Of a stretch of DNA of 51,357 nucleotides, positions 1 through 32,092 are shown one piece after another. The DNA comes from Candidatus Binatia bacterium (GTDB lineage: Bacteria > Desulfobacterota > Binatia > HRBIN30), in assembly GCA_036382395.1 (NCBI GenBank), contig DASVHW010000155.1:1-51357 (forward strand), read 5' to 3'. Under the pieces are notes generated by a model. It searched no databases. It was not told the origin of the DNA and saw only the letters and a list, made by a program, of their open reading frames with translations. A program made the translations under genes and the position numbers. Positions within the stretch are counted from its first letter, which is position 1, and every line of letters begins with the position of its first letter.

Positions 1-461
1 TCGCACCCGAGCCGCAGCGCCTCCAGCGGGATCGAGCCGCCCCCCGCAAACGGATCCACGACCAGCGGCGGCTCTTCGCCATGCGCCGCCTTCACCAGCG
101 CCCGGCTCACCTCGAGATAGGTACATTGCGCCGCGTTATCCCAGTTCGCGAAGTCCGCGATAAACTTGAGCAGCGCCTTGCGCAGGTCCTCGTCCGTGGT
201 GCCCGGATTGCAGCCGGCCACCTGCGGCAGGAGTTCCCGCGCCTTTGCCTTGAACTCCGCCGGGCAGAGCGGATCGCACGGGTCCGGCCACAGCAGCGTG
301 AGCAGCACCGCCCGGCTCGACGCCAGCGGCCGCCGCGCCCACCACAAGTGCAGCGTGCTCGGATGCCCGTGCCGGATCGACTTCTCCCGCGCCGCGCGCC
401 GCGACACCTCGGCGATCGGGAAGTCCACCTCGGCGAGGCGCTTGCAGTCCTTGGGGATCAT
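1..461 (-). CDS. DUF1156-domain DNA methyltransferase, N-terminal ~153 codons (the rest runs off the left window edge)
   Basis: Absent from the ORF track because it is open at the window edge. Reverse-complement translation from the ATG at 461..459 gives MIPKDCKRLAEVDFPIAEVSRRAAREKSIRHGHPSTLHLWWARRPLASSRAVLL...PPLVVDPFAGGGSIPLEALRLGC. KSIRHGHPSTLHLWWARRPLA is the hallmark DUF1156 N-terminal motif. DPFAGGGS resembles SAM-binding motif I. The start overlaps the upstream stop as ATGA (458..461). Confidence 0.75.
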   Translation of the reverse strand, partial: MIPKDCKRLAEVDFPIAEVSRRAAREKSIRHGHPSTLHLWWARRPLASSRAVLLTLLWPDPCDPLCPAEFKAKARELLPQVAGCNPGTTDEDLRKALLKFIADFANWDNAAQCTYLEVSRALVKAAHGEEPPLVVDPFAGGGSIPLEALRLGC

Positions 462-805
462 TGCCGGACCTTGCCCTTCTTCTTGCGAGACGGGCCGCCA
501 TCGCGGCCGGAATCGGGCGAGAGCGGTCCGGAAACGGGCGGTCGCCCGGAGGCATGGGCGGTTGCCATCGCCAGTCCCGCCTCCGTTGTTTTGTACCTCT
601 GCATCCGGCTTCGCGGCTTTTCAGGGATGGTCCGTTCCAGAATGTCCATGGCCATCAAGGGCGCAAGATAGTTCGCCTGGAAGGTCTTCCAGTGCTTGAG
701 CCCCAGTTCGGTCATGATGGCCTTCGCCGGTTGAGGTTCGCGGCAGAACGCCGCCACTTGTGCGGTGACTTCTGCGGTCACTTGTGCGGCGACATGCGGG
801 GTCAT
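458..805 (-). CDS. Small stand-alone winged-HTH protein, paralogous to the C-terminal tail of the upstream AlbA_2 protein, with a basic C-terminal tail
   Basis: 115-aa ORF. ILERTIPEKPRSRMQRYKTTEAG aligns with LVERTIPDKPNSRLQKYRLTPAG at the C-terminus of the 802..2283 product. It has an N-terminal VAAQ/VTAE/VTAQ peptide repeat. It has ATGA overlaps at both ends (802..805 and 458..461). Confidence 0.6.
   Translation of the reverse strand: MTPHVAAQVTAEVTAQVAAFCREPQPAKAIMTELGLKHWKTFQANYLAPLMAMDILERTIPEKPRSRMQRYKTTEAGLAMATAHASGRPPVSGPLSPDSGRDGGPSRKKKGKVRQ
755..802. repeat. Imperfect 12-bp tandem repeat, 4 units, coding
   Basis: Units are cacttgtgcggt / gacttctgcggt / cacttgtgcggc / gacatgcggggt. 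On the minus strand they encode HVAAQVTAEVTAQVAA at the N-terminus of the wHTH protein. Confidence 0.6.
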
Positions 806-2283
806 TTCACGTCATCCCCGCCGCGTTCCTTCAGCGCCTTTTCCCCGGCCGGGGTCAGCCGGTACTTCTGCAATCGGCTGTTCGGCTTGTCGGGTATGGT
901 GCGTTCGACGAGGCCTTGCTCAAGGAAACGTCGGACAGACCGCTTGAACGCTCCCGTCACGGCCTTGCACCCGCACCGTCTCGCCCAATCAGAGATCGCC
1001 AGGGGGCTGTCGGCTAGATGACGCAGGAGCGACTCGGCCCCTGACTCGGCCCCTGACTCGGCCCTTGACCTTCCCGCCGCGCCGCCGGCAACCAACGGCG
1101 CCCTGAAGGTGACGACCAGGAACCCCTGCTTTTCCTCGAAGACCGGAGGCGGTGCGCCGTGCTTCTCGCACATCTCGATCACGCGGTTGGTGCCGCGACC
1201 CCAGACCTCCACCGCTCCGGTGCGATGGAACGCTTCGGCGATCGACGGGTTGGTCGGCTTCGACAGATGCGGACCGGAGAGCTGTTCCACGGTCATGCCG
1301 CCGGGGAGACGGCCATAGCTCTGGATCTCGATGCGGTCGTCGAAGATCGCGATCGCGACGTACCCGGAGTGATGGGAGTAGTCGCGGTGCATGACGGCGT
1401 TGAGGAGGATCTCTCGCAGCGCTGCGGGCGGAACCGGGAAGCGATCTTCACGGAAAACCGTTCCCTTGGGGAATCGCGCCCCCAGCGGCATGGTGCGCTC
1501 GAGGAACGCCATGCCTTCGCGCACCATGGAAAAGGCGTTCATGTGCTCCTGCCGGTTGTCCACGATCTCGCCGGTGACCGTCGTGCCGCGGAAGCGCCCC
1601 AGCTTGAGAAGGCACTGGGGATAGTCGGGCATGAATCGCGTGCCGTAGAGCACCTGGGCGGCCCGCGTGAGGACGCTCGATACCCGCAGTCCCAGCCGGT
1701 CGAGAATCTCCCCGATGTCGCGGCGGGTGTCCGGCGAGATCCGGCTTTGCTGAATGGCCAGCTCGCGCGTCCGCAGGATTTCCTTGCGATCCAGGTCCTT
1801 CAGCGCCAGTCCCTCGGCTGAAAGGTTCTCCCAGCGGCGTTTGGCATGGCCGCGCTCGACGAGCAGACGCTCGTACTTGGCCTGCGGCATCCGACGCGTC
1901 GTGCTCCCTACGCGCTCGTACGGGCGGCCTTCGTAGGTGAAGGGTCGCATGTCCACGCCACCCTCGACCGCCGCAAGGACGAGCTCGCGGCCTGCCTTGA
2001 CCTTGATGCGATGGATGGAGACGTGGGCGGGCGGCTCGAAGCGATCGGCGGCTTGAGCGATGTCGCGGAGCGTCTGGTCAGAGACGGCCTGCCCCTCGAT
2101 GGTACCTTCCGGCCGGACGCCGAAGAGCACCATGCCGCCGGAGCCGTTCAGGAAGGCGCAGAGCGTCTGCATGCCTTCCTTCAACTCTCCCGTCGAGCGC
2201 TTGAACTCCAGAGCCGGACCTTCGCTTTCTTTCACGAGGGCGGCGAGCTGTTTCGCGTTCGCGGGAATCCCCACGGTCGTCAC
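802..2283 (-). CDS. AlbA_2 (Schlafen-like divergent AAA) + HATPase_c_4 + C-terminal wHTH protein, the family often annotated as 'RecG-like putative transcriptional regulator'
   Basis: 493-aa ORF with a GTG start. N-terminus SEGPALEFKRSTGELKEGMQTLCAFLNGSGGMVLFGV is typical of AlbA_2. The central LREILLNAVMHRDYSHHSGYVAIAIFDDRIEIQSYGRLPGG is typical of HATPase_c_4. The C-terminal wHTH ends ERTIPDKPNSRLQKYRLTPAG. GTGA overlap with the helicase stop (2280..2283). Confidence 0.75.
   Translation of the reverse strand: MTTVGIPANAKQLAALVKESEGPALEFKRSTGELKEGMQTLCAFLNGSGGMVLFGVRPEGTIEGQAVSDQTLRDIAQAADRFEPPAHVSIHRIKVKAGRELVLAAVEGGVDMRPFTYEGRPYERVGSTTRRMPQAKYERLLVERGHAKRRWENLSAEGLALKDLDRKEILRTRELAIQQSRISPDTRRDIGEILDRLGLRVSSVLTRAAQVLYGTRFMPDYPQCLLKLGRFRGTTVTGEIVDNRQEHMNAFSMVREGMAFLERTMPLGARFPKGTVFREDRFPVPPAALREILLNAVMHRDYSHHSGYVAIAIFDDRIEIQSYGRLPGGMTVEQLSGPHLSKPTNPSIAEAFHRTGAVEVWGRGTNRVIEMCEKHGAPPPVFEEKQGFLVVTFRAPLVAGGAAGRSRAESGAESGAESLLRHLADSPLAISDWARRCGCKAVTGAFKRSVRRFLEQGLVERTIPDKPNSRLQKYRLTPAGEKALKERGGDDVK
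1031..1066. repeat. 12-bp tandem repeat x3 (gactcggcccct), coding
   Basis: gactcggcccct gactcggcccct gactcggccctt read directly. It encodes the (AESG)x3 linker just before the wHTH of the AlbA_2 protein. Confidence 0.9.
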
Positions 2284-5200
2284 GGACGTTCTCCTCCATA
2301 CGGCGGCGAGTCCTCACGCACCTGCATGGGCTTCGTCATCGCGTTCACGGCCAAGTAGTAGTGGGCCACCTTCGTCACCTCGTTCCAGTCGAGGCGCGCC
2401 GGGTCGCGGATCGGCTGCTGGAGTCGCGGAGCATTGTCGCAGTCGGTGACGACGTAGAGCCAGAAACAGTCGGGACGGTCTTCTGCCACGCGGCGCTCAT
2501 TGGGCGTGAGCAGGATCGTGCCGGTCGCTGCACCAAGGCCCTTCACCTCGATGAGGCGCAGCTCTCCGGAAGCAAGGTCGAGGCTCGTGACGTCGTAACC
2601 CAGGTTTTTCTCCGAGACATCGTAGACCTGCCGCCCCTGCGCCTGCTCGTGCTCCATGACCACGCGCATGGCGATGGCTTCGGTCTCGAAGTTCGGCCTG
2701 AGACGTCGCACCTCGGGCGCCTCGCGCTCCGGATGGGGCAGGACCAGCACGCTGGCGATACGTTCGACGGCTTGCAGCGTGAGCGCCCGCTGGCGCTCCA
2801 GCTCGCGCCGCCGCCGCTCGCGCCGCACCATCAATTCGGCATGTCGTGCTTCCGCTTGTGCCAACCGGCCCTCTGCACCGGTCACCTTCTGGTCGACCTC
2901 CGCCGCAGCTTTGCCGATCTCTTCGTCGACCTTCTGCAGCAGCTCCGTCAACGACAGCTTGATGTGCGCGCCGATGCGCTCGATCTCGGCCAGTCGCTCG
3001 GCGCGGACTTCTCCGATGAAGGGTGTGAGCGCGTTTGTGTTCAGCCACTCGGTTGCCTCGGGAAGCGAGATGACCGACGGCAGAGCGGCGGGCGCTGGAG
3101 TTGCGGTGAGGTTGCCGAGCATGCTGAGTTCGACCAGCTTGGCGTTGCCCTCACCCTCGCTGCGAGAATTCTCTTGAAGGAAGCCTTCGCTTGGAGACGC
3201 CGTGCCCTCACGGCGTTCAATCCCGCTGCGAGCGCGGGCTGAGGGCAGCCCGTCTCCAACTGCGGAGTGAGGAGATCCAATCTCCACAGCGAACAACCGT
3301 TCGTGAATCACTTGGCCGAGGCCGTCGACGACTCGTGCGCGGTAAAAGTCGATTCGCGCCGACGTCTCGTGGTCGAGCGAGTAGAAGCACGCGCCCTTGG
3401 CGAACACCTCCTGGGCGAGTGCGCTGGTGTGCCGGTGCAGCGCTTCGAAGTGCGGATGCCCCGGCGTGACCCACTCCAGATTGTTCTTCTCCGCCGTCTC
3501 GCGATCGGTCGACAGCCGCGGATACTTCGCGACCAGCGCTGGAAGCTTCCAGTCGGGTTCGCTCTCCTGGCGCCGCAACACCGGCGGCGTCCTGCCGGGC
3601 TCGAACGCGTGCGGCAGCGACGCAACCGGCTTCAGCTCGAACGGGACATACCCCGCCGCGTCGCGGATGAAGCGCGCGATCGTCTCGGGCACGACGCGCC
3701 GCTCCTGGGCGCGGGCGCGGCGCTCGATGAGCATGTCGAGGTTGAGCCGCTTGCTGGCCAAACCTTCGAGCGCATTCTGGCAGATGGCCCGGAACCGGCC
3801 TTCGTCGACATCGCGCAGGAGCCGATCTTCAAGGTCCGCATCGCCGAGCTTGCCGGCATAGTAGTCGCGTAGGACGCGCTCGATGTGGGCGGCAGGCAGG
3901 ATCTCACCGACGACGTTGAAGACGGCGTCGTCATCGAGGGCGTTGCGGATCTCCTGCAGCTTCTCGAGCAAGCGCTGGAGCACGCGGCCTTCGATGGTAT
4001 TCGTGGCAACGAAGTTGAAGATGAGACAGTCGAAGAGCTGGCCGTAGCGATGGATGCGGCCCATGCGCTGTTCGAGCCGATTCGGGTTCCACGGAATGTC
4101 GTAGTTGAACAAAATGTGGCAGCACTGCAGGTTGATGCCTTCACCTGCCGCTTCGGTGGCAACGAGCATCTGAATGTTACCTTCTCTGAACTGCTGCTCG
4201 ACGTACAGCCGCGTGTTCGGTTCTTCCCGCGAGCCGATCTTCATGCTGCCGTGGATGCATCCGACGCGGAAGCCCCACTCTTTGAGAAGTCCCATCAGAT
4301 AGTCCAGCGTGTCCTTAAACTCGGTGAACAGGAGCAGACGCTGCTCGGGATGGTCGAAGAATCCCTCTTGGTGCAGGAGCTCCTTGAGCCGCGACAGCTT
4401 GGCCTCGGCGCCCGAGTCCTCGACGCGCTTAGCATCTACGGCCAGCACCTTCAGCTCCGCGATCTCCTCGCGAACCTGCTCGGCACTGCCGGCAAGCGTG
4501 ATCGCTTCGAGCATCTGCTCCAGGCGCTCCCGTTCGCTCTCCTCCATCTCTTCCAGTTCTTCAGGATCGGGAAGGTCCGGTGGTGCGATTCGCGCGAGTT
4601 CCTGGGCCTGCTTCAGTGCCGCGTCGAGGCGGCGGGCGCGATTGTCGAGCGAGCACCGCATGGCGTGCGTGCTGGACGCCAGCCGGCGCTGGTACAGCGA
4701 CATGAGGAAGCCGACGGCGCGAGCGCGCGGATCGTCGCCCTGTGCGGCGGCCTTGGCGCTCTGCTGCTTCACGAAGTGGGTCACGCTCCGGTAGAGATCG
4801 AACTCGTTCCCGTCGATCTGGAAGTCGACCGTGTGCGGAATCCGCTTGGTGAAGATCTTCCGCGCCACCCACGAGCCGTCGCTCTGGCGCTCGGGGAAAT
4901 AGACCATCGCCTCCTTCGTGCGACGCAGGTAGAATGGCGCGCGGCGCTGGGTCATCGCCTGACGAATCGACTTCACGTCGGCGTAGGCGTCCTCGTCGAG
5001 CAGTTGGAGAAACAGGCTGAAGTTCGTCGGGTCACCCTTGTGCGGCGTGGCGGTGAGGAGCAGTAGGTGATCCGTGCTGTCCCGGAGCAGCTCCCCGAGC
5101 GCGTAGCGCGCGGTCTTCCGAGCTGGCGGCGTCCACGACATCCGGTGCGCCTCGTCGACGATGACCAAATCCCAGTGCACTTGTTTCAGGCCGGGAAGAA

Positions 5201-5837
5201 TGTCAGTGCGCTTGGCCAGGTCAAGCGACGTGAGGACATGACGGTGCTCCAGCCACTGGTTGACGCCGAACTGGTCGCGAATGTCGCCGCCTTTCAGGAC
5301 CAGAAATTTCTCGTCGAACTTCTCCTTCAGCTCGCGCTGCCATTGGAAGGTCAGATTGGCGGGGCAGACGATCATAATCCGATCAGCCAGCCCACGGAGC
5401 TTCAGCTCGCGGATGAGCAGTCCCGCCATGATGGTCTTGCCCGCACCGGCGTCGTCGGCGAGCAGGAAGCGTACGCGCGCGAGTTTGAGCAGGTAGTGGT
5501 AAACGGCTTCAAGCTGGTGGGGCAGGGGATCGACGCGCGACACCGAGAGGCCGAAATACGGGTCGAATTCGTATGCAATCCCCAGCGAGTAGGCCTGCAA
5601 GCCCAGCCAGAGCAGCCGGCCGTCGCCGTTGTACGTGCAGACGGATTCTTGAACAGCCAGGGCTTCGAGATCCCGGCGCGTCAGCGTTACGCTGCGGAAT
5701 CGCTCCGAGCGGATACCGACAAGCCCGACCGTCCAGGTGTCCGGCCCATTCGGCCGCACTGTCTCCACGCGCATGGGCTCGTTGAAGAGTGCACCGGAAA
5801 GAACTTGTCCGGGACTGATAGCGTGTTCTTCGTTCAT
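2280..5837 (-). CDS. SNF2-family helicase with a long coiled-coil linker and a C-terminal DUF3883 (PD-(D/E)xK-like) domain
   Basis: Helicase motifs: LLADDAGAGKT (motif I), LVIVDEAHRMS (DEAH), LLLTATPHKG, QRMGRIHRYGQ (motif VI). C-terminus: NLGYDVTSLDLASGELRLIEVKG...CFWLYVVTDC, as in DUF3883. The start is uncertain: ATG at 5837 (GGAGG lies immediately upstream) or TTG at 5861 (track start). Confidence 0.85.
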   Translation of the reverse strand: MNEEHAISPGQVLSGALFNEPMRVETVRPNGPDTWTVGLVGIRSERFRSVTLTRRDLEALAVQESVCTYNGDGRLLWLGLQAYSLGIAYEFDPYFGLSVSRVDPLPHQLEAVYHYLLKLARVRFLLADDAGAGKTIMAGLLIRELKLRGLADRIMIVCPANLTFQWQRELKEKFDEKFLVLKGGDIRDQFGVNQWLEHRHVLTSLDLAKRTDILPGLKQVHWDLVIVDEAHRMSWTPPARKTARYALGELLRDSTDHLLLLTATPHKGDPTNFSLFLQLLDEDAYADVKSIRQAMTQRRAPFYLRRTKEAMVYFPERQSDGSWVARKIFTKRIPHTVDFQIDGNEFDLYRSVTHFVKQQSAKAAAQGDDPRARAVGFLMSLYQRRLASSTHAMRCSLDNRARRLDAALKQAQELARIAPPDLPDPEELEEMEESERERLEQMLEAITLAGSAEQVREEIAELKVLAVDAKRVEDSGAEAKLSRLKELLHQEGFFDHPEQRLLLFTEFKDTLDYLMGLLKEWGFRVGCIHGSMKIGSREEPNTRLYVEQQFREGNIQMLVATEAAGEGINLQCCHILFNYDIPWNPNRLEQRMGRIHRYGQLFDCLIFNFVATNTIEGRVLQRLLEKLQEIRNALDDDAVFNVVGEILPAAHIERVLRDYYAGKLGDADLEDRLLRDVDEGRFRAICQNALEGLASKRLNLDMLIERRARAQERRVVPETIARFIRDAAGYVPFELKPVASLPHAFEPGRTPPVLRRQESEPDWKLPALVAKYPRLSTDRETAEKNNLEWVTPGHPHFEALHRHTSALAQEVFAKGACFYSLDHETSARIDFYRARVVDGLGQVIHERLFAVEIGSPHSAVGDGLPSARARSGIERREGTASPSEGFLQENSRSEGEGNAKLVELSMLGNLTATPAPAALPSVISLPEATEWLNTNALTPFIGEVRAERLAEIERIGAHIKLSLTELLQKVDEEIGKAAAEVDQKVTGAEGRLAQAEARHAELMVRRERRRRELERQRALTLQAVERIASVLVLPHPEREAPEVRRLRPNFETEAIAMRVVMEHEQAQGRQVYDVSEKNLGYDVTSLDLASGELRLIEVKGLGAATGTILLTPNERRVAEDRPDCFWLYVVTDCDNAPRLQQPIRDPARLDWNEVTKVAHYYLAVNAMTKPMQVREDSPPYGGERP

Positions 5838-5959
5838 CCTCCGCCCCGCTCGCTCCTGCAATTAGCATAGGCTCGCGGTTGGGAGATAGAACCGAGAGTG
5901 AACCGACAGAAGGGTACGGGTGGGCGCCCGCCTACGGCTGACCCCGTCTCCCTCGCAGG

Positions 5960-7135
5960 CTACGACTCAGGACCGATGGTCAGCACGAGATCATTGCGGT
6001 GGATGACCTCTTCGGTGAGCTTGTATCCGAGGACGCCTTCGATGCCGGCGGAATGGACGCCTTTGATCTTGTCCAATTCGGCGGCGCTGTAGTTCACCAG
6101 GCCGCGCGCGAATTCGCTGCCTGACAGATCGACGCAGCGAACGCACTCGCCGGGGCCGAACTTGCCGTGGACCTCCTTCAAGCCTTTGGGCAAGAGACTG
6201 CGGCCCTTGTGGGTGATTGCTTCATAGGCACCCGGGTCCACCACCAGCGTGCCCGCCGGCTTCAATGTGTAGGCGATCCAGTGCTTGCGCCGGCCCAGTC
6301 GATCGCCGCGCGGAAGAATCAGTGTGCCCACCGCTTGGCGCGCATCGAACACCGCCGGCAGCACGCCGGAATGGAGACCGTCCGCGATGATGGTGGGAAT
6401 GCCGGCGGCAGCGGCCTTCCTGGCGGCGGCAAACTTCGATGCCATTCCCCCCGTGCCGAGTGCGCCACGCCCATCCATGACGTAGGCGGACATGGCGCGG
6501 CCGGGATCCTCGACCACGTCGACCATCACGGCGTCGGAATGGGCGTGCGGGTTCTTGGTGTACAGTCCGGCGACGTCGCTGAGCAGCACGAGCAGGTCGG
6601 CTTCGACCAGGCCGGCGATCAGGGCCGACAGATTGTCATTGTCGCCGAAGTTTCTCAGCTCGTCGATGACCACGGTGTCGTTTTCGTTGGCCACGGGCAC
6701 GACGTCGGCGGCAATGAGCGTCTCGATCGTGTGCCGCGCGTTGAGATACCGGCTGCGGTCCGCCAGGTCGTCGTGGGTGAGGAGAATCTGAGCTACCTGG
6801 GTCGAGTGCGAGGCGAAGTACTCTTCGTAGAGGGCCATCAAGTTGATCTGTCCGACCGCGGCGGCCGCCTGCCGCTGTGGGACGGTTTTCGGGCGTTCCT
6901 TGAACCCAAGGCGCGCCATGCCCGCGGCAACCGCGCCCGAGCTCACCACCACCAGCTCGATGCCGCGTTTGTGCAATCCGCACAGTTCTTCCGCCAGCGA
7001 TCGGAGCCGCGGGCGATTGATGCCGTTCGGCCCCGATAAGATGCTGCTACCGATCTTGATTACCGCGCGGCGCAGGTGTTTACACAAGCGCGGCTTATGA
7101 ACGAGTTGGTCGTTTGTCGCGGCAGATCCGCCCAT
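5960..7135 (-). CDS. proB: Glutamate 5-kinase with PUA domain
   Basis: VIKIGSSILSG...ELVVVSSGAVAAGMARLG...NDTVVIDELRNFGDNDNLSAL, plus a C-terminal PUA-like region (GDRLGRRKHWIAY...VNYSAAELDKIKG). Confidence 0.9.
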   Translation of the reverse strand: MGGSAATNDQLVHKPRLCKHLRRAVIKIGSSILSGPNGINRPRLRSLAEELCGLHKRGIELVVVSSGAVAAGMARLGFKERPKTVPQRQAAAAVGQINLMALYEEYFASHSTQVAQILLTHDDLADRSRYLNARHTIETLIAADVVPVANENDTVVIDELRNFGDNDNLSALIAGLVEADLLVLLSDVAGLYTKNPHAHSDAVMVDVVEDPGRAMSAYVMDGRGALGTGGMASKFAAARKAAAAGIPTIIADGLHSGVLPAVFDARQAVGTLILPRGDRLGRRKHWIAYTLKPAGTLVVDPGAYEAITHKGRSLLPKGLKEVHGKFGPGECVRCVDLSGSEFARGLVNYSAAELDKIKGVHSAGIEGVLGYKLTEEVIHRNDLVLTIGPES

Positions 7136-7136
7136 C

Positions 7137-8210
7137 TCATTCCCTCACCCTGACCGTCTCCTGGAGCGCGAGGGGATCCTGAGGTGGCGGCTCGTCAGGC
7201 ACCGCCGCTCGTAGCGCCCGCCAACGGCGACCGACCTCACGCATGAGCACGGCGACGCCTTCGCCCGTGGCGGCAGAGATTGCCCACAGCGTGATGCCGC
7301 GTTGCGCAAAACGCGCCTGGACAGCAGGGTAGCGTTCTCGCGCTTCGCTCAAATCCATCTTATTGGCGACCACCACCTGCGGTTTTGCCGCCAGCGTGGC
7401 ATCGAAGGCTTCGAGTTCGCGATTGATCGCGTCGTAGTCGTCCACCGGATCCCGGCCGGTCAGGCCGCTGATATCGAGGAGATGAATCAGGAGACTGGTG
7501 CGCGACAGGTGGCGGAGAAAACGGTCCCCCAGTCCGCGTCCGCGGTGCGCCCCTTCGATCAGACCCGGAATGTCGGCAAGGACGAAACTTCCTTCGTCAT
7601 CGAAGCGGACGACGCCCAGGTGGGGCACGAGTGTCGTGAAAGGGTAATCCGCAATCACGGGTCGGGCGGCGGAGACGGCACTGATCACGGTTGATTTGCC
7701 GACGTTCGGATACCCGACCAACCCGACGTCGGCCAGAAGGTGGAGTTCGAGCCGCAGGCGGCGTTCCTCGCCTGGAGTTCCGGGCTGGGCGTATCGCGGC
7801 GCCTGGTTCGTGGAGCTGGCGAAATGGGCGTTGCCTTTGCCGCCGCGCCCGCCGTGCGCGACGATGTAGCGCTCGTGCGGCTGGCGGAGATCGACGATCA
7901 GCTCGCCGGTATCGGCATCGGTGACGATGGTGCCCGGGGGGACGCGGACCAGACGGCCCTCACCGTGCTTTCCGTACTGTTGCTTTCCCCTGCCATGTTC
8001 GCCCCGGCCGCCTTTGACGAGGGGCTGAAATTTGAAATCCAGCAAGGTGGTGAGGCCGGGGTCGACCACAAAGACCACATCGCCGCCGTCGCCCCCATCG
8101 CCGCCGCTCGGTCCGCCGTGGGGCCTATATTTTTCGCGCAAAAAGCTGACACAACCACGCCCACCGTCGCCGGCATGCACATGGACCTCAGCTTCGTCAA
8201 TGAATTTCAT
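7137..8210 (-). CDS. obg: GTPase Obg/CgtA
   Basis: MKFIDEAEVHVHAGDGGRGCVSFLREKYRPHGGPSGGDGGDGGDV is the Obg fold. G domain: GYPNVGKST ... DIPGLIEGAH ... NKMD. Confidence 0.95.
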   Translation of the reverse strand: MKFIDEAEVHVHAGDGGRGCVSFLREKYRPHGGPSGGDGGDGGDVVFVVDPGLTTLLDFKFQPLVKGGRGEHGRGKQQYGKHGEGRLVRVPPGTIVTDADTGELIVDLRQPHERYIVAHGGRGGKGNAHFASSTNQAPRYAQPGTPGEERRLRLELHLLADVGLVGYPNVGKSTVISAVSAARPVIADYPFTTLVPHLGVVRFDDEGSFVLADIPGLIEGAHRGRGLGDRFLRHLSRTSLLIHLLDISGLTGRDPVDDYDAINRELEAFDATLAAKPQVVVANKMDLSEARERYPAVQARFAQRGITLWAISAATGEGVAVLMREVGRRWRALRAAVPDEPPPQDPLALQETVRVRE

Positions 8211-10337: not shown

Positions 10338-11380
10338 TGGTGCTGCGCCGTGCCAAACGCCGCATGCCTGAGGTGCTGCGGCCCATCATCTTCCGCTGGG
10401 ACCTCGACAAGACATACCTGAAAACTGAGTTCGACTCCCTGCGCGAGCTGATGCGGGTGCCGTTCGAGAAGCCGCAAGACAAAGTCGCGGTCCCCGGTGT
10501 GGCCCCGCTCATTCGTGGCCTGCGCGAGGTGGCGACCCAGGCGGGCCGGGAGGTCCGGATCTATTTCATCTCGGCGAGCCCGCCGCAAATCGCCAAGGCT
10601 ATCAAGCAGAAACTTGCCCTCGACGGCATCGAGTACGATGGCATTGTGTTCAAGAACCAGTTACAGCACCTGGTCCGCGGTCGATTCCGCAACTTGCGCG
10701 AGCAAGTCGGCTACAAGCTGACGGAGCTGCTGAAGAGCCGCGGCGCGACGTCGGCGGAATCGCACGAGGCGCTGTTTGGCGACGACTGGGAGTCAGATCC
10801 AATCATCTATTCGCTGTATGCCGATGTTCTCGCCGGTCGCATCGCTGGCGACGAACTCGGTGAAGTTCTCCTTGCCATCGGCGTTGATCCGAGCCTGATT
10901 GCCGAGGCTAAGCAACTTGCGGCTGCAGCCGAGCGCGGCGAAGTCGTGGAAAAGATATACATCAACCTCGAGCGCCGCACCCCGCCGACCAGCTTTCGCG
11001 CTTTTGGTCCTCGCCTGGTGCCCACCTTCAACTACTTCCAAACGGCCGCGTGCTTGTTCGAGGACGGCTATCTGACCTTGCCGGCGGTGGTGCAGGTTGC
11101 CGAGAGTTTGATCAACGACTCAGGCTACACGCCTGGGGCGTTGGCGAATTCCCTGGCCGACATCACGCGCCGCGGGCATCTGCAGCAAGCGAGTACGATC
11201 GCGGTGCGCGAGTACTTACGAGCCCGCGGGCTGATCCCGCGTACCGGTCGTCGCCGTGTGGGCATGGCCTTGTGGCAGCGACTGAGCCAGTGGGTCAAAG
11301 CCAAACCCGCTCCGGTGCAGCCACAGGGCGATGCCATTGATTACCACCAACTGGTTATGCAATGGCGTGCGGCGCGTTAG
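10334..11380 (+). CDS. HAD-superfamily phosphatase, App1/DUF2183-like (putative phosphatidate phosphatase)
   Basis: DxDxT motif (WDLDKTYL), ISASP, and FGDDWESDPIIYSLY, which resembles the App1-family GD..E.DP.IY motif. The start (GTG 10334 or ATG 10337) overlaps the plsX stop. Confidence 0.6.
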   Translation: MMVLRRAKRRMPEVLRPIIFRWDLDKTYLKTEFDSLRELMRVPFEKPQDKVAVPGVAPLIRGLREVATQAGREVRIYFISASPPQIAKAIKQKLALDGIEYDGIVFKNQLQHLVRGRFRNLREQVGYKLTELLKSRGATSAESHEALFGDDWESDPIIYSLYADVLAGRIAGDELGEVLLAIGVDPSLIAEAKQLAAAAERGEVVEKIYINLERRTPPTSFRAFGPRLVPTFNYFQTAACLFEDGYLTLPAVVQVAESLINDSGYTPGALANSLADITRRGHLQQASTIAVREYLRARGLIPRTGRRRVGMALWQRLSQWVKAKPAPVQPQGDAIDYHQLVMQWRAAR

Positions 11381-11725: not shown

Positions 11726-12883
11726 CTACGGCCGCCGCAAGTGTGGCGGCGTAACGCCTTCGATGCGGAAGTCGTCGCTTGCTGGCCTGCCCGGAAGGCC
11801 GTTCTTCTTCGGCTCTTGACGTGAGAGATCGAGATTCTTGATGCGAATACGCAGGTTGTTGGCGCTGTCGGCGTCGGCCAGCGCCTGCTCCTCTGAAATT
11901 CGCCCCTGAGCATAAAGGTCATAAATTGCGTGGTCGAACGTCTGGCCGCCTTCGTGGGTGCTCTGCTCTATGGCTTCCTTGAGCGTGTCGATTTCACCTT
12001 TCTTGATGAGGTCTTTGATCCAGGGTGTGTCGATGAGGACTTCGAGCGCCGCCACACGCTTCCCATCGACCCCCGGCACGAGCCGTTGGGAGATGATACC
12101 CCGCAGATTGAGGGAGAGCTGAAGATAGATCTCGGGATGCCGTGGTTGGGGGAAGAAGTTCATGACCCGTTCGATTGCCTGGTTGGCGTTGTTCGAGTGT
12201 AGCGTCGCCAGGCAGAGGTGGCCGGTTTCTGCAAACGTGATCGCCGCCTCCATCGTTTCAGCGTCGCGCACCTCGCCAATGAGAATGACATCCGGCGCCT
12301 GGCGCAGGGTATTCTTCAATGCATCATTGAACGAAAGCGTATCGAAACCCACCTCACGCTGGTTCACGATGCACTTCTTGTGGCTATGCACAAACTCGAT
12401 TGGATCCTCGACCGTCAGAATGTGTCCCGCGGTCATCTCGTTACGGTGGTCCAACATAGCGGCTTGCGTGGTGGACTTGCCCGAGCCGGTTGCGCCAGTC
12501 ACCAGCACGAGCCCGCGGCGGCTGAGCGCAAGGGTTTTCAAGATCGGTGGCAACTGCAGCTCATCAAGCGTTGGGATGCGGATCCTGATCTGGCGCACCA
12601 CCACCGCCACCGCACCCCGCTGGCGAAACACATTGATACGAAAGCGGCCCAGTCGCTCCGAAGCGATGGCCAGATTCATTTCCAGCTTCTCATCAAAGGC
12701 GGCACGCTGGCGCTCACTCATGAGCGACGTCGCGAGCGCCTCGACCTCGACCGGCGTCAGCACCTCGGTTCCGACGGGTTCGGTGAACCCCTCGATGCGA
12801 AGCATGGGAGGACTCTCGATGGTCAGATAGAGATCGGAGGCGCCGCGCGTCACCATCTCGGAGAGCAGCAGCCGGATATCCAC
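11726..12883 (-). CDS. pilU: PilU-like type IV pilus retraction ATPase (PilT family)
   Basis: MDIRLLLSEMVTRGASDLYLTIESPPMLRIEG..., Walker A GATGSGKSTT, and ILIGEVRDAETMEAAITFAETGHLCLATLHSNNA. Confidence 0.8.
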   Translation of the reverse strand: MDIRLLLSEMVTRGASDLYLTIESPPMLRIEGFTEPVGTEVLTPVEVEALATSLMSERQRAAFDEKLEMNLAIASERLGRFRINVFRQRGAVAVVVRQIRIRIPTLDELQLPPILKTLALSRRGLVLVTGATGSGKSTTQAAMLDHRNEMTAGHILTVEDPIEFVHSHKKCIVNQREVGFDTLSFNDALKNTLRQAPDVILIGEVRDAETMEAAITFAETGHLCLATLHSNNANQAIERVMNFFPQPRHPEIYLQLSLNLRGIISQRLVPGVDGKRVAALEVLIDTPWIKDLIKKGEIDTLKEAIEQSTHEGGQTFDHAIYDLYAQGRISEEQALADADSANNLRIRIKNLDLSRQEPKKNGLPGRPASDDFRIEGVTPPHLRRP

Positions 12884-12886
12884 CGG

Positions 12887-13990
12887 TTACGCTCCGCGCC
12901 CCCCGACCGGCCGCGGAAATCGCTGCGCGCCAGCCTTGGCGTCGGTCGCCATTGCCCCGAACAAGTTCGGCGTTAGGGTCCTCGACTGCGCTTCTTCCTT
13001 GGTGACCAGGCCCCTGTTCACCAGATCGATCAGGGCCATGTCCAAGGTCTGCATTCCCACGGCTTGGCCGGTCTGCATGCTTGAAGGAATCTGATGGATC
13101 TTGTTCTCGCGGATCAGGTTGCGCACGGCGGGCGTCCCAATCAGAATCTCGAGGGCTGCGATCCGTCCCCCGGCTCGTTTGCGCAACAGGGTTTGTGTGA
13201 TCACCGCTTGGATCGATTCCGCGAACATGGTGCGGATTTGCGATTGTTGGCCCGCTGGGAAGACGTCGATGATGCGATCGACCGTCTTCGGCGCACTGGA
13301 GGTGTGCACAGTTCCAAACACCAGGTGGCCGGTTTCGGCCGCAGTCAGTGCCAACGAGATCGTTTCCAAATCGCGCATTTCGCCCACCAGGATGACATCG
13401 GGATCTTCACGCAACGCGCCGCGGAGCGCTGCGTCAAACGACATGGTGTGCGGTCCAACCTCACGCTGGTTGACCAAGCATTTCTTCGAGGTGTGGACGA
13501 ACTCGATCGGGTCCTCGATGGTCAGGATGTGTCCTTCGTAGCCCTCGTTGATATAGTCGATCATTGCCGCCAGAGTGGTCGACTTTCCAGAACCGGTAGG
13601 TCCGGTGACCAAGACCAATCCTTTCTCTTTGTCGGCAATGTCCTTTATCACCTGGGGCAGCCCGAGATCATCGAAGGTCATCACCTTCGTCGGGATCGTA
13701 CGGAACACGGCGCCCTCGCCGCGACGGGTGCGAAAGGCGTTCACCCGAAACCGAGCGATGTTCCCCAACTCGAACGAAAAGTCCGCGTCGTTCGTTTCCT
13801 GAAACGTCCTGCGCACCGCATCACTCATGATGTCGAAGACCATGTGGTGCACCTCTTCGGGGCTGAGCGGCGGGTGCTCGATGCGTTTCATGTCGCCATG
13901 AATGCGGAGCATCGGCTGCTCTCCAGACGAAAGGTGAACGTCGGAGGCTCCCTCCCGGTGGGCAAAAGTCAGCAACTGTGTGATATCCAT
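12887..13990 (-). CDS. pilT: Twitching-motility ATPase PilT
   Basis: MDITQLLTFAHREGASDVHLSSGEQPMLRIHGDMKRI, GPTGSGKSTT, and ILVGEMRDLETISLALTAAETGHLVFGTVHTSSA. The ATG at 13990 is preceded by gagagggg. The track ORF extends 42 nt further 5'. Confidence 0.9.
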   Translation of the reverse strand: MDITQLLTFAHREGASDVHLSSGEQPMLRIHGDMKRIEHPPLSPEEVHHMVFDIMSDAVRRTFQETNDADFSFELGNIARFRVNAFRTRRGEGAVFRTIPTKVMTFDDLGLPQVIKDIADKEKGLVLVTGPTGSGKSTTLAAMIDYINEGYEGHILTIEDPIEFVHTSKKCLVNQREVGPHTMSFDAALRGALREDPDVILVGEMRDLETISLALTAAETGHLVFGTVHTSSAPKTVDRIIDVFPAGQQSQIRTMFAESIQAVITQTLLRKRAGGRIAALEILIGTPAVRNLIRENKIHQIPSSMQTGQAVGMQTLDMALIDLVNRGLVTKEEAQSRTLTPNLFGAMATDAKAGAQRFPRPVGGRGA

Positions 13991-14139
13991 GGATGAACCC
14001 CTCTCGTGGATAGTGGAATGAGCAAAACGCACGCCAGGTGCGGGGGCTCGACACCTCTGGTGTCATCATGCCGGGGCAGGGGTGGCATCCTCAGCTTCGG
14101 GCAACGTGAGGGCCTGGGACGTTAATTTGGTAACGCCGC

Positions 14140-27924: not shown

Positions 27925-29619
27925 ATGATCACACGTTTGGGCGAACTGCTGGTTAAGCGCGGACTGATTACGTCGGCGCAACTCACCAAGGCCTTGGAGG
28001 AACAGGCCACCGGTACGAGCGCCTTGAGTTCCGTGTTGGTCACGGCGGGATTCATCAACGAAACCGACCTGGCCGCCTGCTTGCAGAAGGAATACCGGCT
28101 CTCGCTGGTGGATCCGTCGGCCATGAATCTGCCTGCCGAGGTGCTGCGGTTGATTCCCGCCACCTTGGTGCAGCGGCATCATCTGATTCCCATCAACTTG
28201 AGCGGCTCGTCACTTACCGTGGCGATGTCTGATCCCTCCAATCTGGTGGCGATCAATGAGGTGAAATTCCTCACCGGGTATGACGTGAAGGTGGCTGTGG
28301 CGTGCGTGTCTTCCATCAGCGCCGCCATTGAAGAGCACTACGAGGAGGGTGCGGACTACGACGACGTCCTGACGGAGATCGAGAGCGAGGACGTCGAGGT
28401 CCTCGACAAAGGTGAGGAGGTCGACCTCAAGGAACTGGAGCGCGCGACAGAAGACGCTCCGGTCGTCAGGCTGGTCAACGCCATCCTCACTGCCGCGATC
28501 AAACGGCGCGCCAGCGACATTCACCTGGAGCCGTTCGAGCGCATGTTTCGCGTGCGGCTGCGCGTCGATGGCGTGCTAGAGGAGATCATGCGGCCGCCCC
28601 TGAAGCTCAAGAACGCCATCACGTCACGAGTAAAGATCATGTCGGCACTCGATATTGCCGAACGGCGCTTGCCACAAGACGGCCGGATCAAACTGAAGTT
28701 GGACCGGAGACAAGAAATGGATTTCCGCGTCTCGGTCTTGCCGACGCTTTTCGGCGAGAAGATCGTGCTGCGATTGCTTGACAAGTCGAACCTGCAGCTC
28801 GACATGACCAAACTCGGATTCGAAGAGGGGGCGCTGAAGGACTTCAAGGATGCGATCTCCAAGCCGTACGGCATGGTGCTCGTGACCGGCCCCACGGGAA
28901 GCGGTAAGACGACGACCTTGTACTCGGCATTGTCGGAACTCAACAAGATTGGATCGAATATCTCCACCGCGGAGGATCCGGTTGAATTCAATCTCGTGGG
29001 GATCAACCAGGTACAGATCCATGAGGAAATCGGATTCAGCTTCGCCAATGCCTTGCGTGCCTTTCTGCGGCAGGATCCAGACATCATCATGGTTGGCGAG
29101 GTGCGCGACTTCGAGACCGCGGAGATCGCCATCAAGGCGGCACTCACAGGACATCTGGTGTTGAGCACCGTGCACACCAACGATGCGCCATCGACGATCA
29201 ACCGTCTTCTCAACATGGGGGTTGAGCCGTTTCTGGTGGCGTCCTCGGTCAACTTGATCCTGGCCCAACGACTGGCTCGCGTGGTTTGCAGTGGCTGCCG
29301 CGAACCGGTGGAGTTGCCCCACCAGGCATGGCTCGATATCGGTGTGGGGCGGGACGAGATCGGTTCGTTCAGCTCCTTTCATGGGGTCGGCTGCCCGCAA
29401 TGTAATGGCACCGGCTACCGCGGCCGTATCGCGTTGTATGAGGTGATGCCGATGAGCGAGGAACTCCGAGATCTGGTGCTGAACGGGGCCTCGGCGGCGG
29501 AAGTCAAGCGTTGTGCTGTGAATCTCGGCATGAAGACATTGCGGCAATCCGGCATCGGCAAGTTGAAAGAAGGGGTCACGACGGTGGGAGAGGTGGTTCG
29601 TGTGACCATGCCCGATTAG
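27925..29619 (+). CDS. pilB: Type IV pilus assembly ATPase PilB (GspE family)
   Basis: N-terminal T2SSE_N-type domain (LGELLVKRGLITSAQLTKALEEQ...). GPTGSGKTTT. Tetracysteine motif CSGC...CPQCNGTGYRGR. Confidence 0.9.
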   Translation: MITRLGELLVKRGLITSAQLTKALEEQATGTSALSSVLVTAGFINETDLAACLQKEYRLSLVDPSAMNLPAEVLRLIPATLVQRHHLIPINLSGSSLTVAMSDPSNLVAINEVKFLTGYDVKVAVACVSSISAAIEEHYEEGADYDDVLTEIESEDVEVLDKGEEVDLKELERATEDAPVVRLVNAILTAAIKRRASDIHLEPFERMFRVRLRVDGVLEEIMRPPLKLKNAITSRVKIMSALDIAERRLPQDGRIKLKLDRRQEMDFRVSVLPTLFGEKIVLRLLDKSNLQLDMTKLGFEEGALKDFKDAISKPYGMVLVTGPTGSGKTTTLYSALSELNKIGSNISTAEDPVEFNLVGINQVQIHEEIGFSFANALRAFLRQDPDIIMVGEVRDFETAEIAIKAALTGHLVLSTVHTNDAPSTINRLLNMGVEPFLVASSVNLILAQRLARVVCSGCREPVELPHQAWLDIGVGRDEIGSFSSFHGVGCPQCNGTGYRGRIALYEVMPMSEELRDLVLNGASAAEVKRCAVNLGMKTLRQSGIGKLKEGVTTVGEVVRVTMPD

Positions 29620-29630
29620 GCGGGCCTGCC

Positions 29631-30764: not shown

Positions 30765-30770
30765 AGCATC

Positions 30771-30786
30771 TGGCACGTAGCGTGCT
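30771..30786 (+). promoter_or_regulatory. Sigma-54 (-24/-12) promoter-like element upstream of pilC
   Basis: TGGCACGTAGCGTGCT has GG-N10-GC spacing, compared with the consensus TGGCACG-N4-TTGCW. It lies 7 nt after the pilT2 stop and ~80 nt before the pilC ATG. Confidence 0.4.
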
Positions 30787-30865
30787 TTAAACCTTACTTC
30801 AGAAGGACGACAGTAGGCGAATGAAGGGAATTCGCCCACTGCTCCTCTCACGGCGAGGTAAAAAA

Positions 30866-32086: not shown

Positions 32087-32092
32087 TTCGTT

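Follow-up and report, generated by a model that had tools for sequence, protein, structure and literature searches.

A probable Hma (type-1 BR) operon with an embedded Schlafen-type module at a contig end of a Binatia genome

Four consecutive genes, here called A to D, occupy the minus strand at one end of the window, as the whole analysed stretch of 51,357 nucleotides is called here, and the question raised by this locus was whether they form a defence system of their own or a known system with additional genes lodged in it. An earlier note, made from the sequence alone, had proposed a candidate non-canonical system. The results described below indicate that the region is very probably an Hma (type-1 DUF499-centred BR) operon directed against phages, of which the contig end leaves the 5' two-thirds, with an embedded Schlafen module in its slot. 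The features are collected in Table 1.

Table 1. Features of the operon, positions in the window
Feature	Position	Strand	Size and basis
hmaA (gene A; SNF2 helicase + C-terminal NOV_C PD-(D/E)xK nuclease)	2280..5861	minus	1193 aa ORF; Pfam, PADLOC
gene B (Schlafen-type cargo)	802..2283	minus	493 aa ORF; Pfam, motif
gene C (small wHTH ORF)	458..805	minus	115 aa as longest ORF; Pfam
hmaB, 5' portion (gene D)	1..461	minus	frame open to window edge, 153 codons, no stop; Pfam, PADLOC
proB–hmaA spacer	5862..5959	minus	98 bp; 122 bp if ATG 5837 is the hmaA start
12-nt tandem repeat coding for (A-E-S-G)n, B linker, upstream edge of inserted wHTH	1031..1069	minus	repeat search, family D3
12-nt tandem repeat coding for (V-T-A-Q/E)n, N-terminus of C, downstream edge of inserted wHTH	750..797	minus	repeat search, family D1

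Core genes and operon layout

The arrangement of the four genes in one operon with 4-bp overlaps, as proposed in the earlier note, was reproduced from the ORFs and by reading the sequence directly. The A/B overlap is TCAC on the plus strand at 2280..2283, that is, GTGA on the minus strand, and ATGA overlaps of 4 bp were found at 805..802 (B/C) and 461..458 (C/hmaB). Since the public gene call for C (P0001, 107 aa) starts at GTG 781, the B/C overlap holds for the longest ORF only. The domain assignments of the note (SNF2/DUF3883, AlbA_2/HATPase_c_4/wHTH, a stand-alone wHTH and DUF1156) were likewise all recovered by Pfam profile search.

Protein A matched the profiles SNF2-rel_dom (1.7e-16), Helicase_C (9.8e-25) and NOV_C, formerly DUF3883 (3.6e-21, residues 1061–1147). 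The PADLOC model of HmaA covered residues 14–838 with E=2.6e-164 and scored higher (547 bits) than those of DrmD (389) and BrxH (366). The ATPase motifs were intact (Walker A GKT141, DEAH236), and the putative nuclease residues D1090, E1105, K1107 and E1122 were unchanged in 93/93 homologues. These four residues match those mutated in Halomonas HmaA, where changing the D/E-x-K/E set abolished defence (PMC11232893); that HmaA is a nickase that alone protects E. coli from phage T4 (PMC11232893). Protein A is HmaA, which is predicted to be the main effector of Hma / type-1 BR. No record of the exact protein was found elsewhere with either of its two alternative starts, and the nearest relatives in a genome-collection scan were at most 84% identical.

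The fourth protein, D, matched DUF1156 (Pfam, 7.9e-22), followed by the SAM-binding motif I DPFAGGGS, and the PADLOC HmaB model (8.5e-31). It was 65–91% identical to the N-termini of ~1000-aa DUF1156 proteins encoded downstream of hmaA in 61 loci. The fragment, which is the 5' end of hmaB, a DUF1156-type putative methyltransferase gene, holds the DUF1156 helical domain and motif I, while motif IV, the TRD and the C-terminal HTH triad fall past the window edge. In another Binatia locus whose HmaA is 84% identical (L001), hmaA is followed by an AAA_21 cargo, hmaB (1019 aa, DUF1156) and hmaC (1049 aa, DUF499), and DUF499 (HmaC) was also found downstream of hmaB in L085 and L087. The window apparently makes up the entire 51,357-bp contig. 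As ~85% of hmaB and any hmaC would fall past its left end, and the exact HmaA is unrecorded elsewhere, the completeness of the system is not demonstrable for this genome. No NCBIfam model attained its curated cut-off. The core is that of a named system and not a non-canonical one: Hma was defined as HmaA/HmaB/HmaC (Payne 2021, PMC8565338) and has been renamed as the type-1 DUF499-centred BREX-related (BR) system (NAR 2026, PMC12839542).

The gene identities and catalytic motifs, like the variability of the slot and the split of gene C described below, were established here, and from them and the literature the biochemical activities of the proteins are inferred. HmaB, as a DUF1156 N6-adenine methyltransferase, would mark self DNA; HmaC, a DUF499 STAND/ORC-like ATPase presumably encoded outside the visible part, would sense or scan; and HmaA, an SNF2 translocase with a C-terminal PD-(D/E)xK nickase, would restrict invading DNA. 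This R-M-like model of Hma has been only partly tested, since HmaB gave no protective-methylase behaviour against T4 (PMC11232893).

On the other side of hmaA, the genes proB (5960..7135), obg, rpmA and rplU were identified upstream on the same strand from their ORF translations, and no tRNA gene was found across the whole window; both observations agreed with the earlier note. The 98-bp gap given there was revised. Since the HmaA homologues align only from residue ~8–18, ATG 5837 is a likelier start of hmaA than TTG 5861, and the spacer to proB would then measure 122 bp. A consensus scan of the minus strand from 1 to 7300, spacer included, recognised neither a sigma-70 promoter-like site nor a terminator. 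A proB-linked integration site was also considered; a ProB/Obg homologue lay near hmaA in none of the fetched loci, and a conserved site was thus unsupported.

The hmaA–hmaB slot and its Schlafen-type cargo

When the 61 related loci with hmaB in reach were compared, hmaA abutted hmaB in only three, and the remaining 58 carried 301–7289 bp of variable cargo. Fic/DOC genes were found in nine loci and HATPase_c_4/AlbA_2 proteins in five, plus L009, L053 and L057; AAA_21, AAA_13, DUF3644, OLD-TOPRIM and GmrSD_N–AlbA_2 were further contents. Embedded genes have been reported in 62.7% (bioRxiv 10.1101/2024.01.29.577857) and in 66.5% of Hma systems, with the hmaA–hmaB junction as an insertion hotspot (PMC11232893). 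Judged by its position, gene B is one of many predicted cargoes of this documented insertion slot. The Schlafen-like ATPase, described in the earlier note as wedged in from outside the known set, occupies a hotspot on record, and the composite nature attributed to the locus proved right in the sense of a Schlafen cargo inside an Hma operon.

Protein B showed the domain order SLFN_AlbA_2 (1.1e-17, residues 21–132), HATPase_c_4, a minimal GHKL/His-kinase-like domain (1e-22, 309–393), and a Fic-like_C wHTH (5.8e-10, 450–477). Its motif E21-GPAL-E26-F-K28 (E21-x4-E26-x-K28) corresponds to the catalytic motif Ex4(E/D)xK of prokaryotic Schlafen nucleases (pSlfns; PMC13056530), and the catalytic residues were invariant in 18/18 homologues. 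Gene B encodes a pSlfn of the HisKinase–HTH class, for which RNase activity is predicted. [quoted passage not shown] Additionally, PADLOC (PADLOC-DB v2.0.0) returned three weak pAgo-associated matches for B and nothing else, the only PDB sequence match, which covered the HATPase_c_4 region, was to the uncharacterised 3lmm_A, and no Pfam Fic-domain match (HxFx(D/E)GNGRxxR) was obtained in B or C. The only record of the identical B protein is a Logan contig of 2,153 bp (L081), and homologues with 61–86% identity directly follow hmaA in L009, L053, L057, L093, L097 and L106.

The role of B is inferred from these features. It would most likely be a second-layer effector working on its own, as a backup or through abortive infection, which would cleave tRNA or other RNA once its sensor domains were triggered. 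Gene B shares a transcript with the Hma genes and is coupled to them in translation. Protection has been seen for DUF262-fusion and Ig-like-fusion pSlfn constructs only, and the paper apparently reports none for the HisKinase-fused constructs that it assayed (PMC13056530), so that the defence role of the class of B is unproven. That last result would also agree with another role, in which B uses its wHTH to control transcription of the Hma operon while AlbA_2 merely binds nucleic acid, in line with the older COG2865 annotation ('predicted transcriptional regulator with HTH and Schlafen-like domain'). The presence of a C-terminal wHTH and the names 'predicted HTH transcriptional regulator' or 'RecG' given to family members in the sources point the same way. 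Nevertheless, an invariant E-x4-E-x-K triad would be needless in a pure DNA binder, the gene lies mid-operon and not upstream, and the same slot houses other cargo of effector type, among it DUF262–AlbA_2 fusions, a class that has been validated by experiment (PMC13056530). A regulatory role of this kind was considered improbable, and B is discussed below as a predicted effector.

The extent to which B belongs to Hma was weighed with the same loci. If the four genes made up one integrated non-canonical system, with B and C as obligatory partners (for example, a nucleic-acid sensor licensing HmaA), the single strand and the tight translational coupling through 4-bp overlaps would be expected; B-like genes do begin exactly at the hmaA stop codon in several loci, and embedded nucleases of this type have been argued to be functionally integrated backup effectors (PMC12839542). 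However, a B-type gene was present in only ~8–10/80 closely related hmaA loci (70–84% identity), and in the slot survey three loci had no cargo and the remainder carried unrelated cargo in the same place. Relatives combining HATPase_c_4 with a C-type wHTH also occurred away from Hma genes, in L114 within a type I R-M operon and in L129 beside an integrase and an Mrr-helicase, contexts that point to a HisK–wHTH chassis able to work independently of Hma. With HmaA protecting E. coli against T4 by itself, and C being a split piece of B and not a fourth component (see below), an obligatory four-gene system was judged very improbable.

The slot itself carried traces of exchange. DNA homology to the window ended at the hmaA stop codon and, in most loci, resumed at the hmaB start codon, and six hmaB-5'|hmaA-3' junction scars were found across five independent loci. 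In the tentative cassette reading taken up below, each cargo would move as a unit flanked by the hmaA 3' end and the hmaB 5' start. Clean swapping of such units fits the homology breakpoints, and the scars hint that units may alternatively concatenate. These exact cargo boundaries and junction scars bear on how defence genes become embedded in other defence systems.

Gene C and the split wHTH

Protein C matched a single Pfam profile, Fic-like_C (3.2e-17, profile positions 5–64 of 64). In the alignment, L088, L096 and L102 carry its equivalent as an in-frame C-terminal extension of the pSlfn–HisK body, and its VTAQVTAEVTA segment corresponded to an internal linker of the fused homologues; in the window and in L093, an inserted wHTH and a stop codon part C from the pSlfn body. 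A longer (SGAQ)5 array was present in L093 at the site matching the (A-E-S-G)n repeat of B. On this alignment, C is the ancestral C-terminal wHTH of the pSlfn (linker, wHTH and an unconstrained basic tail), split off as its own ORF. The 'orphan' wHTH of the earlier note is therefore not an independent component, since it aligns in frame with fused proteins. A second wHTH module, bringing a stop codon with it, entered the linker between two 12-nt repeat arrays and left C as a separate ORF, and six other loci show this split as well.

Two other origins of C were examined. A Fic gene remnant was suggested by the Pfam name and by Fic/DOC being the commonest cargo in the clade; it was rejected because the C-family HMM matched pSlfn C-termini and 0/9 Fic cargo proteins of the surveyed slots, and because of the in-frame alignment. 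An hmaB-linked controller was suggested by the 4-bp wHTH/hmaB overlaps (L082–L087), and was weakened by the C-like ORFs of L093, L097 and L106, which are not followed by hmaB, and by the occurrence of a stand-alone C in 0/80 genome loci with hmaB.

Whether the split piece is maintained was approached through its divergence. The C relatives comprised more than 120 clusters of 64–136 aa. The dN/dS of the core was 0.33 across 10 distinct stand-alone copies vs 0.16 in fused copies; that of the tail was ~1.2, and whole-gene values were 0.55–1.05 vs 0.18–0.24 for the adjacent hmaB. From these ratios, the constraint on C is estimated to be relaxed but non-neutral. C could be a dead relic, a 3' end in decay that has no function of its own: the tail and whole-gene ratios and the doubled core value favour this, C-like ORFs persist in L082–L085 and L087 beside debris (chimeric ORFs joining the hmaB 5' end to the pSlfn 3' end, the pSlfn body being lost), and long chance ORFs are likely at high G+C. 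Even so, the core ratio is well under 1, the Pfam match spans the entire wHTH domain, and the ORF with its ATGA junctions at both ends has been retained even where the B proteins are down to 69% identity. The relic was accordingly kept as a serious possibility, if short of a probable one.

The opposite reading, that C has been kept as a trans-acting pSlfn subunit and that the slot is a homology-driven cassette array, is proposed as a linked pair of ideas, tentatively and as rather unlikely. A trans-acting C may gate the predicted RNase or titrate it, or share its DNA target with the new wHTH of B. The ATGA junction recurred between B-like and C-like ORFs in six more loci (L091, L093, L097, L098, L106 and L109), and if C is maintained, B–C would make up a two-gene form of pSlfn shared by at least seven loci. 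The split itself illustrates the swapping of DNA-binding modules in pSlfns via linker repeats. The split wHTH subunit and the cassette turnover mechanism are not described in the Hma/BR and pSlfn papers cited here, and the split, together with the recombination scars that hint at cargo exchange, is what is modestly new here.

Comparison with named systems

The earlier note was right to associate DUF1156 methylases with a DUF499 ATPase and a helicase in one R-M-like set, but the DUF3780-containing set taken as its reference corresponds to type-2 BR (DUF1156 + DUF499 + DUF3780 + helicase). Type-2 BR has in common with this locus the predicted DUF1156 methylase, the SNF2-family helicase and the R-M-like logic. 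Its helicase has an N-terminal HKD nuclease and its locus a stand-alone DUF3780, whereas the nuclease found here is a C-terminal PD-(D/E)xK of the NOV_C type, the type-1 hallmark. No Pfam match to HKD/PLD was obtained in any of the four proteins, HmaA residues 1–105 included, nor to DUF3780 in the four visible proteins, the region left of the contig end being unseen.

Type-3 BREX (BrxC, BrxXI methylase, BrxHII helicase) and the DrmD of DISARM are related through the SNF2 core of HmaA, which scored 1.2e-109 with BrxHI/HII and 1.5e-116 with DrmD (PADLOC), and BR systems are regarded as homologous to type-3 BREX (PMC12839542). Unlike in those systems, neither PglZ nor any further BREX gene nor DrmA/B/C was present in the window, and the methylase carries the BR-specific DUF1156 N-terminal domain. 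An assignment to DISARM or BREX type 3 was rejected on these absent partners, on the higher HmaA score and on the NCBIfam DrmD match of 336.6 bits, under its 610-bit cut-off.

The likeness to Hma / type-1 BR extends to the SNF2 helicase with C-terminal NOV_C PD-(D/E)xK and all of its catalytic residues, the 5' portion of a predicted DUF1156 methyltransferase gene downstream on the same strand, the variable genes embedded between hmaA and hmaB, and the position outside a defence island. Here, hmaB can be read for its first 153 codons only, hmaC would lie past the contig end, and the pSlfn with a split wHTH is one among many slot cargoes. As in the nested defence genes of guilt-by-embedding (Payne et al. 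2024 preprint), the cargo lies on the same strand and is bounded exactly by core genes; B is apparently not among the candidate families modelled there, given the PADLOC-DB v2.0.0 result.

The locus is thus one more example of the catalogued Hma / type-1 BR system with a catalogued Schlafen–HisKinase–HTH effector class, and a clean natural case of a HisKinase–HTH pSlfn tightly coupled to Hma, which makes it a candidate test construct for a class without a phenotype so far. Protein B resembles the HisKinase–HTH pSlfns (Nat Microbiol 2026, PMC13056530; PMC12839542) in the SLFN_AlbA_2 E-x4-E-x-K motif, the HATPase_c_4 domain and the C-terminal wHTH, and, like those of BREX/BR loci, it is embedded in an R-M-like defence operon. 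It differs from them in that a second wHTH has been inserted and the ancestral one forms a separate ORF of 107–115 aa.

The HmaA/HmaB core of the operon

The earlier note had described four consecutive minus-strand genes with 4-bp overlaps, and this was borne out by the ORF listing and by the overlap sequences: GTGA at 2283..2280 between the helicase-nuclease gene A and the Schlafen-type gene B (TCAC on the plus strand), and ATGA, read from the sequence, at 805..802 between B and the small wHTH gene C and at 461..458 between C and the methylase gene D. Every domain it had named for the four proteins was reproduced by Pfam. Since the homologues of A aligned only from residue ~8–18, ATG 5837 was a likelier start than TTG 5861. 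In the public gene call (P0001), C was 107 aa long and started at GTG 781. The window was the entire contig, and the contig break fell inside hmaB.

Features of the operon and of the cargo slots in related loci (L numbers)
Feature	Location	Strand	Description
A (hmaA)	2280..5861	minus	reading frame, 1193 aa; Pfam SNF2-rel_dom 1.7e-16, Helicase_C 9.8e-25, NOV_C 3.6e-21
B (Schlafen-type)	802..2283	minus	reading frame, 493 aa; Pfam SLFN_AlbA_2 1.1e-17, HATPase_c_4 1e-22, Fic-like_C wHTH 5.8e-10
C (small wHTH)	458..805	minus	reading frame, 115 aa; Pfam Fic-like_C only, 3.2e-17
D (hmaB, 5' part)	461 to window edge	minus	open frame, 153 codons; Pfam DUF1156 7.9e-22, then motif I DPFAGGGS
12-nt tandem-repeat array	1031..1069		(AESG)n
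12-nt tandem-repeat array	750..797		(VTAQ/E)n
hmaB-5'/hmaA-3' junction	L027:16363-16536		
hmaB-5'/hmaA-3' junction	L039:17255-17666		
hmaB-5'/hmaA-3' junction	L082:8330-8707		
hmaB-5'/hmaA-3' junctions	L086:6211-6459 and 10508-11161		
hmaB-5'/hmaA-3' junction	L099:4637-4933		

PADLOC models assigned A to HmaA (2.6e-164) and D to HmaB (8.5e-31), two components of the Hma (helicase, methylase, ATPase) system defined by Payne et al. (2021; PMC8565338), who reported 1,638 instances in 26 phyla. A retained GKT141 and DEAH236, and its nuclease residues D1090, E1105, K1107 and E1122 were invariant in 93/93 homologues. These four are the equivalents of the D/E-x-K/E residues mutated in the Halomonas HmaA, which alone protected E. 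coli against T4, whose NOV_C domain is a Mn2+-dependent nickase, and whose quadruple mutant lost defence (Liu et al., 2024; PMC11232893). No hmaC was visible in the window. In the closest relative, a Binatia MAG (L001, HmaA 84% identical), hmaA was followed by an AAA_21 cargo gene, hmaB (1019 aa) and a DUF499 hmaC (1049 aa). DUF499 was also found downstream in L085 and L087, and the HmaB of relatives measured ~1,000–1,030 aa.

Additionally, HmaA was 70–84% identical across MAGs assigned to Binatia, Nitrospirota, Acidobacteriota, Planctomycetota and Verrucomicrobiota, as well as to Bacillota, Actinomycetota, Desulfobacterota and others (L001–L080). This identity was unusually high for such a phylogenetic spread and implied that this Hma clade has been transferred horizontally often and in recent times.

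No tRNA genes were found across the whole window, and its other 45 kb was of housekeeping character (plsX, pilT/pilB-type ATPases, tldD, PPDK, a sensor kinase and a PilR-like activator). The regions 11726-14032 and 27925-34168 encoded a pair of neighbouring PilT-like T2SSE ATPases, an MshEN-bearing PilB-like ATPase and a PilR-like activator of PilS-TM/PAS/sigma-54 type, a set that indicated a type IV pilus regulon with no relation to the defence operon.

Cargo between hmaA and hmaB and its probable exchange

The hmaA–hmaB junction has been reported as an insertion hotspot, with embedded genes in 62.7% of 1,485 Hma systems (bioRxiv 10.1101/2024.01.29.577857) or in 66.5% according to Liu et al. 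(PMC11232893). This slot, 1,818 bp long in the window, was surveyed in 80 genome loci from many phyla whose HmaA was 70–84% identical to that of the window. Among the 61 loci with hmaB in reach, hmaA abutted hmaB in only three, and 301–7289 bp lay between them in the other 58. As cargo, 9 loci carried Fic/DOC proteins and 5 carried members of B's own HATPase_c_4 family, which was also present in L009, L053 and L057 with hmaB out of reach; AAA_21, AAA_13, DUF3644, OLD-TOPRIM and GmrSD_N–AlbA_2 fusions occurred as well. DNA similarity to the window stopped at the hmaA stop codon and restarted, in most loci, at the hmaB start codon. Hence, B was one of many interchangeable cargo genes and not a fixed partner of the helicase and the methylase. 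The DNA comparison indicated that exchange involves precise units of cargo that run from start to stop.

Against dozens of loci (L001–L087), the similarity boundaries fell at 461/462 and 2276-2283; the first cargo ORF usually began no more than a few bases from the hmaA stop codon, and the end of the last one frequently lay 4 bp inside hmaB. The cargo family most often found in this HmaA clade was Fic/DOC (~350 aa; 9/58 occupied slots), lying directly after hmaA in L003, L005, L010, L016, L033, L067, L072, L077 and L078; the main text of the Payne 2024 preprint makes no mention of Fic. In L009:13435-17553, hmaA was followed by two Schlafen paralogues in tandem, which shared 75% and 51% identity with B, and the 139-aa ORF between them retained 15 residues of a DUF1156 N-terminus. 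As hmaB was absent from the 10 kb downstream, the locus was taken as degraded or rearranged.

Furthermore, the cargo slots of related loci contained duplicated pieces of the hmaB 5' end, 17–68 codons long, versus 153+ codons for the piece in L086. Such a fragment was often directly followed by an hmaA 3' fragment, in six junctions (L027, L039, L082–84, L086 (two) and L099), the order being hmaB 5' fragment, 0–130 bp, hmaA 3' fragment (last 35–80 codons), more cargo and full hmaB. Chimeric ORFs in which the hmaB start was fused to the 3' end of a Schlafen nuclease gene were also present. These junctions look like what concatenated [hmaA 3' – cargo – hmaB 5'] units would leave, for example after Campbell-type integration of a circularised fragment, a process not discussed in the papers cited here. 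The variable end-points of the fragments argued against a fixed recombination site.

Origin of the small wHTH gene

Small proteins with Fic-like_C only, such as C, formed a family of >120 clusters. In many of the 80 loci obtained by a metagenome scan, the C-type wHTH was the C-terminus of a 495–550-aa HisK–wHTH protein. In L088, a 532-aa ORF shared 77% identity with B across residues 1–480 and then ran on into the C-type wHTH and a tail; a 4-bp overlap coupled it to hmaB. When B plus C was aligned with the fused proteins of L088, L096 and L102, an insertion of ~85–95 aa was apparent, and the same applied to L093. The inserted segment was a second, divergent wHTH ending in a stop codon and flanked by two 12-nt tandem-repeat arrays. 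Thus, the insertion gave B a new C-terminal wHTH and turned the ancestral one into ORF C, which is not the orphan component that the earlier note had seen in it. The identical ATGA B/C junction recurred in L091, L093, L097, L098, L106 and L109, where B was 69–86% identical. The arrays encoded 4-residue linker repeats whose copy number varied among relatives, L093 having (SGAQ)5, and these repeats may promote module swapping or slippage.

Nei–Gojobori estimates of dN/dS were 0.33 for the wHTH core in 10 stand-alone copies, 0.16 in 6 fused copies, about 1.2 for the basic tail of C and 0.18–0.24 for the adjacent hmaB N-terminus. This pattern indicated that C is under relaxed but not neutral evolution; it is somewhat more probably a working split subunit than a slowly decaying relic. 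In pairs with L086 and L087, the dS of the C core (574-757) was 0.14–0.16, and that of the adjoining hmaB N-terminus (3-461) was far higher (0.32–0.47), which pointed either to different segment histories (mosaic recombination) or to DNA-level constraint on C.

Proposed function and relation to known systems

In its domain architecture, B agreed with the HisKinase–HTH class of prokaryotic Schlafen nucleases, which represents 19.2% of 5,930 such proteins (PMC13056530). Its Ex4(E/D)xK catalytic motif (E21-x4-E26-x-K28) was invariant in 18/18 homologues. B had no meaningful match in PADLOC and none in NCBIfam, its sole PDB sequence match was the uncharacterised 3lmm_A, and an identical gene was present in run SRR10489815. 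The same HisK–wHTH chassis with another N-terminal domain occurred in DUF4062–HATPase_c_4–Fic-like_C proteins, one lying between the hsdM and hsdS genes of a type I R-M operon (L114:2714-11802), and one adjoining a tyrosine integrase and an Mrr-cat helicase (L129:3366-11255). These contexts supported B as an autonomous module lodging in various R-M-like operons, and suggest that different N-terminal effectors are swapped onto a shared sensor chassis.

Following the R-M-like model of PMC12839542, HmaB would methylate self DNA, HmaC would sense or scan, and HmaA would translocate and nick unmodified invader DNA; this model has been tested only in part, as T4 was not visibly protected by HmaB in PMC11232893. 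B may be co-expressed as a second layer, in which a trigger sensed through its GHKL-like and wHTH domains would free the Schlafen RNase to shut down translation. In the Nature Microbiology study (PMC13056530), protection was obtained only with one DUF262 fusion and one Ig-like fusion, and no phenotype is known for the HisKinase–HTH class. GmrSD_N (DUF262)–SLFN_AlbA_2 fusions, of the same architecture class as the experimentally validated EcoSlfn7, were observed in the Hma slot of L043, L045 and L076.

Hma loci were renamed "DUF499-centred BREX-related (BR) systems" in a 2026 NAR paper (PMC12839542), in which type 1 is defined as the combination of a DUF499 ATPase with a DUF1156 N6-methylase and an SNF2 helicase bearing an extra active C-terminal PD-(D/E)xK, and type 2 by the addition of DUF3780 and an N-terminal HKD nuclease. 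In its visible part, the operon matched type 1 by this definition; the DUF3780-containing set named in the earlier note corresponds to type 2. Judged by sequence, A and D are HmaA and HmaB, two members of the type 1 BR core already described in the literature, and the Schlafen–HisK–wHTH proteins, associated with BREX/BR core loci in at least 1017 taxa, are read in the same paper as backup abortive-infection effectors. Therefore, of the non-canonical composite system initially proposed, the composite nature stood, while the core system and the insertion class had both already been described.
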